64,000 nucleotides of DNA from Chloroflexota bacterium (GTDB lineage: Bacteria > Chloroflexota > UBA11872): positions 7,383-71,382 of the forward strand of contig JAPOWQ010000032.1 of assembly GCA_026707585.1 (NCBI GenBank). The letters are read 5' to 3'. The translations under genes and the position numbers were made by a program. The notes beneath the pieces are model-generated. The model saw nothing but the letters and a program-made list of their open reading frames with translations, did no database searches and had not been told where the DNA came from. Shown here piece after piece: positions 37,860 to 46,018 of this stretch; the stretch's first letter is position 1; each line of letters begins with the position of its first letter.

Positions 37860-39131
37860 TTAGCCGCTGACGACGTCGCCCTCGACCGGGTCGGCGCGGA
37901 TGCCCTGGGCCTGCACCCATTCAATGGCGGCCTCGATCTCGGAGCGCTCGCCTTCCAGCATCAGCTGCACCCAGCCGATCCCCGCATCAATGTCGGCCCG
38001 GCGCACGTTGAACTTCAGATGAAAGCGCCGAGCCAACTCGTAGAGGATCGGCTCCTGGATTCGGTCTGACGGATAGGTCAACTGGATGCGAATCCGCGCC
38101 GCCTCGTGCTCAACCAGCCGCCCTGTGGTGCCACGCACCGCGTCCTCGACATCCACGGGCGCGCCGCGTTCGGCCGACGTGCGCAAGGCATCCAGCACGT
38201 TCAGCGTGCGGATCGCATCGTGCCCGTCAACACTCGGCGGGCGACCCAGGCGTACGGCGGCGGCAAACTCTGCCATTTCGGCGTCGTACATCGGCTGCAG
38301 GAGGTCCGACTGCACGAACTCGACCGTTGGCAGGCGGAATTCGTGGGCGCCGGAACTCTCGATGTCGATCTGCCCGCTCTTCCAGTCCGACCGGATCCGT
38401 CCCCGGTCGCCAGTGACTTCGAGATGGTCGTACGCGACGCCGGCGGCCTGGCTGAGACTGATGGTGGCGCTGACGCCATCGGCAAACTCGATAGCGCCGG
38501 AAATCGACTCATCGCTGCCGGTGTCGTCCCGGAACGTGATGTGCGCGTAGGCGCGAATCACCGGTTGGCGGTGCAACCAAAGCAACTGGTCTACCAGGTG
38601 AGATCCCAGGAACAGGAGTTGCCCACCGCCACGCGCCGGATCGGCCAGCCAGCCCGGCAGCGGTGGGCCGCCCTTGGCGGCCGCCAGGGTGCGAATGTTG
38701 CCGACCACGCCGCGCCGGATCACGTCGCGCGCGCGGGTGCGCACCTCGTTGAATCGCAGGCAGTACGCAGGCATGTAGGTCAGCCCGCGGGTTTGGGCAG
38801 CCTCGACGACGCCGGCTACTTCGGTCGCATTGAGCCCGGCCGGCTTCTCCACCAGCACGTGCAGGCCGGCTTCAATGCAAGCCTGCGTGACGGGCGCCAG
38901 GTCGTCGTGCGGTACGGCAATCACCGCCGCGTCGGCATAGGCGCCGGCGGTTAGCGCCTCCACGCTGGTCAGGACTTCGGCCACGCCATGCGCGGTCTTG
39001 CGAGCGGCCTCGGCGTTTACGTCGACACAGGCACTCAAGGCGACGCCGTCGGTGGACCAAACAGCCGATGCCAGGCATGTGCCGCCGTGTGATCCACAGC
39101 CGATCAGCGCGATACGAAGGTCAGAGGACAT
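37860..39131 (-). CDS. Gfo/Idh/MocA oxidoreductase fused to a C-terminal NIL/ACT-like domain
   Basis: N-terminus MSSDLRIALIGCGSHG plus a Gfo/Idh/MocA C-terminal domain. The last ~75 aa (QLTYPSDRIQEPILYELARRFHLKFNVRRADIDAGIGWVQLMLEG) resemble the NIL domain of MetN C-termini. Confidence 0.65.
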   Translation of the reverse strand: MSSDLRIALIGCGSHGGTCLASAVWSTDGVALSACVDVNAEAARKTAHGVAEVLTSVEALTAGAYADAAVIAVPHDDLAPVTQACIEAGLHVLVEKPAGLNATEVAGVVEAAQTRGLTYMPAYCLRFNEVRTRARDVIRRGVVGNIRTLAAAKGGPPLPGWLADPARGGGQLLFLGSHLVDQLLWLHRQPVIRAYAHITFRDDTGSDESISGAIEFADGVSATISLSQAAGVAYDHLEVTGDRGRIRSDWKSGQIDIESSGAHEFRLPTVEFVQSDLLQPMYDAEMAEFAAAVRLGRPPSVDGHDAIRTLNVLDALRTSAERGAPVDVEDAVRGTTGRLVEHEAARIRIQLTYPSDRIQEPILYELARRFHLKFNVRRADIDAGIGWVQLMLEGERSEIEAAIEWVQAQGIRADPVEGDVVSG

Positions 39132-39176
39132 AGGGAGGCGGTGTGACGGCGCGACGTCGCCGCATTCTAGGCGACG

Positions 39177-40013
39177 CTAGAAGTCGCGCCGCTCAAAGGC
39201 TCGCAGCGCGAACCCGAGGGTCAATGCCAGGTGAAGAAAGGCGATCAGCAGCATCCAGCCCGACGGCGGATTGCTTGCGCCAAACGGTCCCGCGCTCAAC
39301 TCGCCGGCAAAGCCACCGGCTGCCAGCTGGGCACTGGCCATGTCCCAGATGGCGCGGGTTGGCACGAGCACGCTGCTGAAAATGCCAATGTTGAACATCA
39401 CGGCACTCTCCAGCACGTCGCCTATTTGCTCGATCACGCCGCCGATCAAGGCGGTGGAGTAGAGCGTGAACACGATCACCCCGTTCGGCAGCGGGCTTAG
39501 ACGTGAGCTCCCGGCCAGCGCCAGACCGATCAGCAGCATCGAGGCCAGCAGCATCAGGAGCGGCCCGGACCAGCTGGCGCCGACAATCTGGCCGGTGATG
39601 ACGGCCACGATCAGGATCATCAGGCCGGCCGAGACGCCGATGAACACCGCCAGCATCAAGGTGAAGCCAACAAATTTCCCCAGCACGATTTCGCTGCGGC
39701 GCACCGGCCGCGCCGCAATGGCGTGCAGTGTGCCCTGATCCACCTCGCCCGCGAGCGCGCCGACCGACAGAAAGACGGCCAGCACCGAGGCGATGAAGTT
39801 CAGGCTCCAGAGGCCGCCGACCAGCATCAGGTTCACGACGCCTTCCGTCAGGCCCGGCGGCCCGCCCGGGGTGTCCTGCAGGTCGCGATACCCGAACCAC
39901 ACCCCGACCCCGTAGAGCACCAGGTACCCGAACGTCAGCAACGCCGCCGCCAGCACCACGCGGCGCCGCAACGCTTCGCGAAGCGTGAAGAACGCGATCA
40001 GGTGCGTGCTCAC
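39177..40013 (-). CDS. ABC-2 type transporter permease
   Basis: Six TM segments, ABC-2 family topology. 4-nt overlap with the ATPase gene. Confidence 0.65.
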   Translation of the reverse strand: MSTHLIAFFTLREALRRRVVLAAALLTFGYLVLYGVGVWFGYRDLQDTPGGPPGLTEGVVNLMLVGGLWSLNFIASVLAVFLSVGALAGEVDQGTLHAIAARPVRRSEIVLGKFVGFTLMLAVFIGVSAGLMILIVAVITGQIVGASWSGPLLMLLASMLLIGLALAGSSRLSPLPNGVIVFTLYSTALIGGVIEQIGDVLESAVMFNIGIFSSVLVPTRAIWDMASAQLAAGGFAGELSAGPFGASNPPSGWMLLIAFLHLALTLGFALRAFERRDF

Positions 40014-45270: not shown

Positions 45271-45280
45271 GCGTCGGCGC

Positions 45281-46018
45281 TCAGGCCGGCGCGATACCGG
45301 TCAGCAGCGTGCTCGCGAACGCATCGGATAGCGGAACGCCGAGTGCTCTCACCTCGGCGTGAGCCCCGCGAAAGTCGTAATCCACCCGCCGCAGTTCGGC
45401 CGACCAGCGGCCGCCGGCGTCGTCCAGCACGGCGTAGGTCGCCAGGCCCGGTTGTCCGTCGTGCGAGCGCCCCACGGCGCCGCAGTTCACCCCCAGCACC
45501 TGGCCGGCGTGCCGAACCATGGCGGTATGCGTGTGCCCGCTCGCCACGGCCGCGGCCTCGGTGGGACCGATCACTCGGGCAACAGTCTCCTCGTCGTCGT
45601 GGCGGCTCCAGCCGGTCTCGTCGTCGCCCGGCGACCCGTGTACGACCAGCAACGTGCCGGCTGGCGACTGGATGCTCACCTGCCGGGCCATCCCGCCCAG
45701 CTTCCGGACCATGGCCGGGCCCAGCCGCTCGGCCGCCCAGGCCACATTGGCCTGCAGAAACCTCCCTTGCACGCCTTCGGGATCGTCAAGGGTCGCCAGC
45801 TTCGACGGCAAGTCGGCGATGTAGCGATCCGTATTGCCCTGCACCAGCCGCCAGCCCAGGTCCAGCACCCGCTCCCAGCACTCGCGCGGCCTCGAGCCGA
45901 ACAGCGCCGCGTCGCCCCCAAACACCACCTCGTCCGCGCCCACCCGCCGCAGATCCGCCAGCACCGCGAACAGCGCGTGGCGGTTGCCGTGAATGTCGGT
46001 AACGACTGCGACTCGCAT
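45281..46018 (-). CDS. Calcineurin-like metallophosphoesterase (YfcE/MJ0936-like)
   Basis: MRVAVVTDIHGN, GDAALFG and GNTDRY metal-ligand motifs. First gene of the minus-strand operon. Confidence 0.8.
   Translation of the reverse strand: MRVAVVTDIHGNRHALFAVLADLRRVGADEVVFGGDAALFGSRPRECWERVLDLGWRLVQGNTDRYIADLPSKLATLDDPEGVQGRFLQANVAWAAERLGPAMVRKLGGMARQVSIQSPAGTLLVVHGSPGDDETGWSRHDDEETVARVIGPTEAAAVASGHTHTAMVRHAGQVLGVNCGAVGRSHDGQPGLATYAVLDDAGGRWSAELRRVDYDFRGAHAEVRALGVPLSDAFASTLLTGIAPA

Follow-up and report, generated by a model that had tools for sequence, protein, structure and literature searches.

PimE (Rv1159/MaPimE; CAZy GT87, PF09594) is a polyprenyl-phosphate-mannose-dependent alpha-1,2-mannosyltransferase of PIM biosynthesis. 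To our knowledge, other characterised GT87 enzymes likewise act on glycolipids, and experimental work on the family, which concerns PIMs and lipomannan, comes solely from Actinobacteria. A literature search agreed, returning nothing relevant on GT87/DUF2029 outside Actinobacteria and nothing linking Chloroflexi with PIMs or lipomannan. In the mycobacterial LM/LAM set (MptA, MptB and MptC, supplied by Ppm1), GT4-type enzymes prime a lipid-anchored glycan in the cytoplasm, and several GT-C enzymes then extend it outside the membrane. PimE itself acts on a glycolipid acceptor, and its activity requires D58, Y62, K195 and W319 (PMC12041525).

The locus compared here with these systems lies in a 64-kb stretch of DNA, the window, whose host is an uncultured Chloroflexota (MAG lineage) and not an actinobacterium; an actinobacterial origin of the DNA was rejected. 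Seven co-directional genes run along the minus strand from 46018 to 37860, in the place and order given by an earlier, sequence-only reading, although that reading spoke of an eight-gene operon while itself listing seven. Pfam bore out the gene identities it had proposed (Metallophos_2, GT87 for B, ABC_tran, ABC2_membrane_2, and GFO_IDH_MocA plus NIL). A PlsY-like gene and two GT4 genes do flank the cluster, and the DUF2029-like motifs it had quoted were found as well, GLNPY in B and YPP in A. The genes and their neighbours are as follows.

45281..46018, minus strand: metallophosphoesterase (YfcE/Metallophos_2 type), cytoplasmic, 245 aa; PF12850
43510..45270, minus strand: GT87-like A, polytopic GT-C glycosyltransferase, 586 aa; orthologue Pfam matches, profile match to B, AF2 fold
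41763..43517, minus strand: GT87 B, polytopic GT-C glycosyltransferase, 584 aa; PF09594
40918..41766, minus strand: signal-anchored extracytoplasmic protein, 282 aa, lineage-restricted; one N-terminal TM helix
40010..40921, minus strand: ABC ATPase (DrrA/GldA-like), 303 aa, CTG start; ABC_tran
39177..40013, minus strand: ABC-2 permease, ABC2_membrane_2 (NosY/GldF-like), 278 aa; PF12679
37860..39131, minus strand: Gfo/Idh/MocA oxidoreductase with C-terminal NIL (NIL at about 37896-38090), 423 aa; PF01408, PF22725, PF02894, NIL
35045..37854, plus strand: convergent flank of PlsY-like (35045-35683), GT4a (35774-36760) and GT4b (36757-37854) genes; Pfam G3P_acyltransf, GT4 families
46208..48607, plus strand: divergent neighbours, a 65-aa ORF, a 233-aa ORF and a Lar_N-like protein (47369-48607); gene calls, Lar_N 8.9e-7

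Nearly all junctions had been said to overlap by 4-8 nt. This is so for four of the six, where overlaps of 8, 4, 4 and 4 nt chain A through the permease, the start of B overlapping the stop of A by 8 nt; the metallophosphoesterase is separated from A by 10 nt, and the permease from the Gfo/Idh/MocA-NIL gene by 45 nt. A scan of 37000-47000 for promoters and terminators gave no signal above chance. In the convergent flank all NCBIfam matches fell under the equivalog cutoffs. In relatives further genes follow in this flank, namely a third GT4, LPG_synthase_TM, Wzy_C and an epimerase, and the GT4 and PlsY-like genes, together in relatives with LPG_synthase_TM/Wzy_C, lie alongside the cluster in most genomes. 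Among the products of the neighbouring GT4 operon in relatives are also a protein with an MprF-type flippase domain and a Wzy_C protein. The Lar_N-like neighbour on the divergent side is retained in every lineage examined, including L035 and L048, which probably reflects synteny rather than shared function.

The claim of two GT87/DUF2029 genes stood up to the Pfam check for B and fell short of it for A. B matches PF09594 firmly (7.8e-36, 124.4 bits against a cutoff of 25) and so belongs to the family, while A scores 18.7 bits, below the same cutoff. Other evidence nevertheless backs A: several of its close orthologues have precomputed PF09594 matches, its L035 orthologue scores 24.3 bits, and hhalign aligned A and B colinearly over 417 columns (E 9e-4), with an architecture common to both. 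The AF2 model of A (pTM 0.80) has the GT-C multi-pass fold. In Foldseek searches with this model, the best matches were GPI-MT-I (9wno), PimE (9dm7) and ALG3 (9s6r), with target-normalised TM-scores of 0.55-0.58; these three are GT-C enzymes that use polyprenyl- or dolichyl-P-mannose. For GPI-MT-I, PimE, PIGU and ALG3 the probabilities were 0.99-1.0 and the target TM-scores 0.51-0.58, but the E-values were weak (5e-3 to 0.7, and up to about 1 across the Foldseek matches). At the N terminus, A and B are each extended by about 200 aa, with about four TM helices, in a lineage-specific manner. Searched against 1.84 billion representatives, the N-terminal 205 aa of A retrieved its own orthologues and nothing from any other family. 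These results support the view that A and B belong to or adjoin GT87/GT-C, B firmly and A through its orthologues, its profile match and its fold. That the two are a deeply diverged paralogous tandem pair is the best explanation of their relationship.

Compared with PimE itself, the family match is firm for B and weak for A. Like PimE, A has a GT-C fold. Both A and B have an invariant Asp, at the place expected for the outer loop and followed by a Tyr, together with an invariant Lys, predicted to lie in the membrane, and the motif Trp-x-His/Gln. Unlike PimE, A and B are about 150 aa longer, with the four-helix N-terminal extension being unique to them, and they form a tandem divergent pair in a Chloroflexota host outside any PIM pathway context. 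The invariant residues are D215, Y219, K352 and W494 in the A family and D202, Y207, K355, W495 and H497 in the B family; the His that is paired with the conserved Trp in B corresponds to a Gln in A. Across diverse Chloroflexota GT87s, conservation of D202 and K355 of B is about 90%. The NCBIfam profile NF009915 (PimE-type mannosyltransferase) matches B at 54.5 bits, against a cutoff of 413, and the match begins at D202, aligned to profile position 61. PDB searches with A and B, whether run with single sequences, orthologue profiles or a broad Chloroflexota GT87 profile, never reached PimE. Because no alignment to PimE was obtained, residue equivalences are motif-based only, and D215/Y219/K352/W494 of A and D202/Y207/K355/W495-H497 of B are positional candidates for the residues required for PimE activity.

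The likeness to the LM/LAM set is one of concept, that of GT4 priming in the cytoplasm followed by extension of the lipid-anchored glycan on the outside by several GT-C enzymes. The phylum differs, MptA, MptB and MptC family matches were not seen, and no Ppm1 was identified within the window. Further, no gene of the cluster or flank attains the NCBIfam equivalog cutoff of a PIM/LM/LAM enzyme, PimE included. Neither a PI synthase nor a polyprenyl-phosphate-mannose synthase was identified within the window, where the sole GT2 seen is a 443-aa GT21-like protein at 22665-23996, 15 kb away. Given the Chloroflexota host and the lack of equivalog matches, the likeness to actinobacterial lipomannan/lipoglycan machinery drawn by the sequence-only reading was not supported, and membership of the locus in a PIM/LM/LAM pathway is not supported.

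The three genes downstream of B encode the 282-aa protein, the ATPase and the permease. The 282-aa protein has, as had been read from the sequence, a single N-terminal TM helix with an extracytoplasmic remainder; it also has an acidic tail of about 255 aa and a Pro/Thr-rich linker. It has no Pfam or NCBIfam match, including no match to NosD. Its 37 homologues all fall inside this clade, and it always co-occurs with the ATPase and permease. A fold search with its AF2 model, of mediocre quality (pLDDT 65), gave RseB, SPLUNC1 and an SMP domain as best matches, and because none of these is significant, a lipid-binding reading of the protein is only a lead. The ATPase was shortened to 253 aa by the automatic gene call. 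Its frame is open through Walker A (GPNGAGKST), there is no ATG, GTG or TTG upstream of that motif, and the start is a CTG overlapping the upstream TGA; the gene was mis-called because of this CTG. In ten relatives the start codon is TTG or GTG, and CTG is found in the window locus (L001) and in L007, L008, L013 and L026. A pseudogene lacking Walker A was ruled out by the open, conserved frame and by the TTG or GTG at the same codon in relatives. The ATPase consists of ABC_tran with a weak DrrA C-terminal domain, and it scores 224.7 bits against TIGR01188 (drrA; cutoff 312). The permease, with about 6-7 hydrophobic segments, matches PF12679 at 2.6e-12, and its further Pfam matches are only PF12730 and PF13346.

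In being a two-component ABC-2-type transporter that adjoins glycosyltransferase genes, this module resembles the Wzm/Wzt and TagGH exporters. Unlike theirs, its permease is of the PF12679/PF12730 type and not PF01061, its ATPase shows no Wzt-type C-terminal domain, and relatives with the GT87 pair can do without the module. A Wzm/Wzt-type glycan exporter was thus rejected, there being no PF01061 permease and an ATPase made up of ABC_tran and a weak DrrA domain. The order of outer-face protein, ATPase and PF12679 permease is that of NosDFY (NosD, a periplasmic beta-helix protein; NosF, the ATPase; NosY, the ABC-2 permease; PDB 7o0y), and the permease's only PDB sequence match is to NosY (7o0y_D), over its full length but marginal (E 0.03). 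The module differs from NosDFY in that its outer protein has no NosD match, no significant fold match and no recognisable family, and that it stands outside a nos context. The earlier description of the transporter as an ABC-2 exporter is not supported: the permease is of the PF12679 type, and its sole PDB match is NosY and not a Wzm/Wzt polysaccharide exporter.

The remaining two genes encode cytoplasmic proteins. The metallophosphoesterase matches PF12850 at 7.1e-19, has no TM segment, and has 3qfm and 3rqz as PDB sequence matches. The Gfo/Idh/MocA part of the last gene product finds generic sugar/inositol dehydrogenases in the PDB, and its best NCBIfam match is inositol 2-dehydrogenase (112.8 bits, cutoff 355). 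The NIL domain occupies residues 348-412 (1.4e-13). MetN carries NIL as its C-terminal (C2) regulatory domain, a small module that senses a ligand. Here the same Pfam domain is not within an ABC ATPase, as it is in MetN, but is fused to the Gfo/Idh/MocA oxidoreductase or is free-standing. The fusion is confined to orthologues of at least 44% identity, with more distant homologues lacking NIL, and in a distant lineage a free-standing 79-aa NIL protein directly follows the GT87 pair.

To see how these parts travel, we turn to the relatives. All seven genes are retained in 15 of the 18 informative species-level genomes. The sequence-only reading had named two findings that would speak against it, placement of the polytopic proteins in an unrelated family and lack of conservation in relatives; neither was observed, because the GT87/GT-C assignment holds and the cluster is conserved. 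Only A and B are never separated: they stand side by side wherever a locus has an A orthologue of at least 41% identity and enough flank (L002, L007-L024, L026, L035, L047 and L048; L025 is cut within B). A metagenome scan with the L035 protein added one further independent locus, L048. The ABC trio is kept or lost as one block and is absent from L002, L021, L023 and L024. The GT87 pair is absent from L045 and L046, with a remnant of B in L045; Gfo/Idh/MocA-NIL is absent from L021, the metallophosphoesterase from L035, and the GT4 flank from L022 and L004. Between the metallophosphoesterase and A, an NB-ARC/TPR gene is inserted in L018 and a RelB gene in L007. The pair occurs without the GT4 flank in L022 and L035 and the flank without the pair in L045 and L046; therefore, adjacency is no proof of a shared pathway. 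A single co-inherited operon was ruled out, since the trio, the pair, Gfo/Idh/MocA-NIL, the phosphoesterase and the GT4 flank can each be lost while the others stay; the cluster does not behave as one unit. In sum, the locus is a patchwork of separable modules and not one dedicated lipomannan-type pathway.

We favour, with moderate confidence, a paired outer-face GT-C glycosyltransferase unit that is the functional core of a variable envelope-glycan locus. What the data show directly is which genes are present, their families and folds, their conservation and the loss of modules; donor, acceptor, pairing and any coupling of pathways are inferred. By analogy with PimE, A and B would each draw on a polyprenyl-phosphate donor and attach its sugar, probably mannose, to a membrane-anchored acceptor on the outside of the cytoplasmic membrane. 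The Asp of the first outer loop would be the catalytic base in both, and the conserved Lys would hold the phosphate. The 8-nt overlap of A and B and their unbroken adjacency suggest that they work as a pair in fixed stoichiometry or one after the other. The acceptor may be a glycolipid or lipid-linked glycan whose synthesis the adjacent GT4 enzymes begin on the cytoplasmic side. The 282-aa protein, the ATPase and the NosY-like permease would be an accessory ABC module of their own that has an extracytoplasmic partner, and the phosphoesterase and Gfo/Idh/MocA-NIL are cytoplasmic neighbours loosely tied to the GT87 pair.

It is possible, though unlikely, that even this much coupling is absent and that the locus is no more than a shared neighbourhood of three or four units unrelated in function (the phosphoesterase, the GT87 pair, the ABC trio and Gfo/Idh/MocA-NIL), with a NosDFY-like or DrrAB-like trio driving or serving its own outer partner and having no part in glycans. 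The independent losses and the foreign genes in L018 and L007 are what such a mosaic would leave, and the NosDFY-like gene order and the NosY match point the same way. However, in the window lineage 4-nt overlaps of stop and start codons link B to the 282-aa protein, this to the ATPase and the ATPase to the permease, which implies co-translation; the arrangement is maintained across 15 species-level genomes; the B remnant in L045 indicates an ancestral locus with both modules together; and the 282-aa protein has no NosD match. The opposite extreme, a single pathway homologous to that for PIMs and lipomannan that makes and exports a mannosylated PI-anchored lipoglycan, with the ABC-2 transporter as exporter and the phosphoesterase and dehydrogenase tailoring the head group, is improbable. 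Its gene logic of two GT4 enzymes, an acyltransferase-like protein and GT87 does parallel PimA/PimB'/PatA/PimE (PMC12041525), and the inositol 2-dehydrogenase match of the Gfo/Idh/MocA part also counts in its favour. Against it stand the host phylum, the failure of any gene to match PIM/LM/LAM enzymes at equivalog level, the fact that no PI synthase or Ppm1 was identified in the window, a permease that is not Wzm-type, the separation of the modules in relatives, and a literature in which our search found no link between Chloroflexi and PIMs or lipomannan.

A different acceptor was also considered, in that the GT87 pair might glycosylate secreted or surface proteins (S-layer or wall-anchored) in the manner of PMT, rather than a lipid. 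The GT-C fold class also holds protein glycosyltransferases, OST/STT3 and Pmt being among the fold matches of A, and the Pro/Thr-rich linker of the adjacent 282-aa protein could be a target, but the lipid-acceptor enzymes GPI-MT-I, PimE and ALG3 outscore OST and Pmt in target TM-score, and PimE, a GT87 enzyme, acts on a glycolipid (PMC12041525); we regard protein glycosylation as highly improbable.

If the paired GT-C unit is the right reading, it may be carried further. A and B could form a heteromeric GT-C complex that makes a lipomannan-like lipoglycan in Chloroflexota, its output tuned by the unique four-helix modules at the N termini and by a NIL sensor in the cytoplasm, whether free-standing or fused to the sugar dehydrogenase; the ABC trio would extract or hand on the product via its outer partner. 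This extension is quite doubtful; if true, it would take such systems beyond Actinobacteria for the first time and reveal a new way of regulating GT-C enzymes. As it stands, the tight gene packing at the locus conceals a mosaic of separable modules, within which lies a conserved, paired and structurally extended variant of GT87 in an abundant uncultured Chloroflexota lineage. The pair offers a concrete handle on which surface glycolipid or lipoglycan these Chloroflexota make.

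Seven ORFs are tightly packed on the minus strand from 46018 down to 37860, and the genes called independently on this scaffold (metagenome contig ROBB21-1_SAMN13943206 scaffold_196) also number seven, not the eight counted in the sequence-only reading.

Genes of the minus-strand run
45281-46018, minus strand: metallophosphoesterase (MPE), 245 aa; Pfam Metallophos_2, 7.1e-19
43510-45270, minus strand: polytopic protein A, 586 aa; Pfam GT87 at 18.7 bits, cutoff 25
41763-43517, minus strand: polytopic protein B, 584 aa; Pfam GT87 at 124 bits, 7.8e-36
40918-41766, minus strand: signal-anchored protein, 282 aa; no Pfam match
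40010-40921, minus strand: ABC ATPase, 303 aa; Pfam ABC_tran
39177-40013, minus strand: ABC-2 permease, 278 aa; Pfam ABC2_membrane_2 (PF12679)
37860-39131, minus strand: Gfo/Idh/MocA oxidoreductase fused to a NIL domain (Gfo-NIL), 423 aa; Pfam PF01408/PF22725/PF02894, with the NIL domain at residues 348-412 (1.4e-13)

From MPE to Gfo-NIL the junctions measure +10, -8, -4, -4, -4 and +45 nt; the 4-8 nt overlaps once claimed for nearly every junction are present at four of the six, the others being gaps. A scan for promoters and terminators gave no signal above chance within the run. On the plus strand, convergent with the cluster, lie the PlsY-like gene and two GT4 genes that the same reading had named as flanks.

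B is firmly placed in GT87 by its sequence, and scored 54.5 bits against the NCBIfam PimE-type model, whose cutoff is 413. A alone falls below the Pfam cutoff. The earlier assignment of both proteins to DUF2029/GT87 is firm for B; for A it has reasonable support. We place A in or adjoining GT87 because precomputed PF09594 matches exist for several close orthologues, because the orthologue profiles of A and B are colinear over 417 columns, N-terminal region included (E 9e-4), and because A has a GT-C fold. The AlphaFold2 model of A (pLDDT 74.6, pTM 0.80) found as its best PDB fold matches the GT-C enzymes GPI mannosyltransferase I (9wno), PimE (9dm7), PIGU and ALG3 (9s6r), with target-normalised TM-scores of 0.51-0.58 and weak E-values. 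Of the motifs quoted earlier, B contains GLNPY and A contains YPP. In PimE, D58, Y62, K195 and W319 are essential, and H321 and H322 contribute (PMC12041525). At the corresponding motif positions, orthologues of A have invariant D215, K352 and W494, a Y219 that is >90% conserved, and Q497 where His is expected; those of B have invariant D202, K355, W495 and H497, and a Y207 that is >90% conserved. D202 and K355 of B are also ~90% conserved among diverse Chloroflexota GT87s. Because PDB sequence and profile searches with A and B returned no PimE match, and hence no direct alignment, these residues are motif-based candidates for equivalents of the PimE catalytic residues. Each protein is extended at its N-terminus by ~200 residues, which the model of A folds into about four confident helices before the GT-C core; a search with this part of A against 1.84 billion representative proteins matched only A's own orthologues.

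The 282-aa protein has one N-terminal TM helix followed by a Pro/Thr-rich linker and an acidic body. Its homologues (n=37) all lie inside this clade, and a structure search of its predicted model gave no significant fold match. The permease belongs to PF12679 and not to the Wzm/TagG family, and the only PDB hit to its sequence is NosY, in a full-length alignment (E 0.03). MPE is similar to 3qfm and 3rqz, both soluble enzymes. In Gfo-NIL the oxidoreductase portion resembles generic sugar/inositol dehydrogenases, and only orthologues at ≥44% identity have the fusion. The ATPase is DrrA/GldA-like, with NCBIfam scores below the cutoffs. Its listed ORF starts at an ATG 3' of the expected Walker A, and the protein called automatically is 253 aa long and lacks that motif. 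Upstream of that ATG the reading frame stays open and codes for a normal N-terminus that includes GPNGAGKST; this upstream part contains no ATG, GTG or TTG. A CTG at 40919-40921 (minus strand) overlaps the upstream TGA stop as CTGA. The codon at this site is CTG in the window (L001) and four relatives (L007, L008, L013, L026), and TTG or GTG in ten others. Given the open frame and the relatives' start codons at the same position, we infer that the gene is intact and that it most likely starts at the coupled CTG.

Elsewhere in the window, a large-type bacterial SRP RNA (24160-24423, plus strand; Rfam RF01854, 143 bits) lies just 5' of a dnaX-like gene (24438-26120), and no tRNA gene was found in the whole 64 kb. 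Possible lipid or envelope genes at 17001-23996 encode a CMAS-type methyltransferase, a fatty-acid desaturase and an epimerase/DUF1731 protein, together with an 814-aa WD40 protein and a 443-aa GT2/GT21-like glycosyltransferase, the sole GT2 seen in the window and not Ppm1-like in size. A chromate transporter gene (28272-29507) precedes genes for a DUF58 protein and then an 805-aa TgpA-like transglutaminase membrane protein (29633-33401, plus strand). At 2371-4329, the most GC-rich stretch of the left end (0.709 over 2001-4000), long overlapping ORFs of 628 aa (plus) and 573 aa (minus) have no Pfam match.

A one-genome-per-species scan recovered 20 loci with an A orthologue at ≥56% identity, whose gene content was read from the tblastn table; two (L009, L025) are truncated contigs, leaving 18 informative genomes. 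All seven genes are present in 15 of these, 14 of them with the GT4-GT4-PlsY flank; the fifteenth (L022/L004) lacks the GT4 flank. In L002/L023/L024, MPE, A, B and Gfo-NIL are present without the trio of 282-aa protein, ATPase and permease, and the flank extends into a third GT4, LPG_synthase_TM and Wzy_C. Neither the trio nor Gfo-NIL is present in L021. MPE and A are separated by an inserted gene in two loci: in L018 (6522-9344) it encodes a 940-aa NB-ARC/TPR (STAND-type) ATPase, in L007 (9437-9832) a RelB antitoxin. Conversely, L045/L046 have MPE, the trio, Gfo-NIL and an extended GT4 operon but no GT87 genes. The interval between MPE and the 282-aa protein gene in L045 retains a 73-residue remnant of the B C-terminus (7078-7296; 38% identity, E 1e-6), which argues that the pair was deleted there and that the ancestral locus carried both modules. 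In a distant marine Chloroflexota lineage (L035/L048), A and B are followed directly by a free-standing 79-aa NIL protein (L035 13175-13414, L048 9244-9480) and then by a polysaccharide-deacetylase-domain protein; the two NILs are identical at 79/79 positions, A at 85% and B at 91%. A Lar_N-like (lactate-racemase N-terminal domain) gene, at 47369-48607 (plus strand) in the window, is the divergent neighbour in every lineage examined, the most distant included, and is followed in the window lineage by MFS and ROK genes.

A-B is the only association never broken among the loci compared, and the pair is most likely the unit under selection. A and B would be two outer-face GT-C transferases with a polyprenyl-phosphate sugar as donor; by analogy with the family, the sugar is probably mannose. 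Their acceptor would be a membrane-anchored glycan, on which they would work jointly or one after the other. Cytoplasmic priming could plausibly be carried out by the GT4 enzymes encoded alongside, and the flippase-domain and Wzy_C proteins of relatives may perform later steps. The trio would form a self-contained ABC module with an outer-face partner, in a NosDFY-like arrangement; it might handle the product and is not needed by the pair. Of the rival explanations, the strongest takes the modules to be neighbours with no functional connection. NIL and the pair each occur without the other, and the links of MPE and Gfo-NIL to the pair are weak; the position of NIL after the pair, seen in two deep lineages, is a hint of a regulatory connection.

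Homologues of A, the 282-aa protein and Gfo-NIL come almost entirely from Chloroflexota MAGs (one labelled Phototrophicaceae, class Candidatus Thermofontia), which rules out an actinobacterial host. The cluster had been likened to actinobacterial lipomannan/lipoglycan machinery. When membership was tested, it fell outside the PIM/LM/LAM pathway, and its transporter fell outside the Wzm/Wzt exporter class. The observation of the cluster stands as corrected here, and the lipomannan-machinery interpretation is supported only in part. PimE is the closest known enzyme to A and B, and NosDFY the closest known transporter layout to the trio. Literature searches turned up neither a characterised GT87 from beyond Actinobacteria nor any link between Chloroflexi and PIMs or lipomannan. 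What makes the locus a new variant is a GT87 pair in Chloroflexota with N-terminal extensions, its unusual Gfo-NIL neighbour and its setting in a variable envelope-glycan locus.
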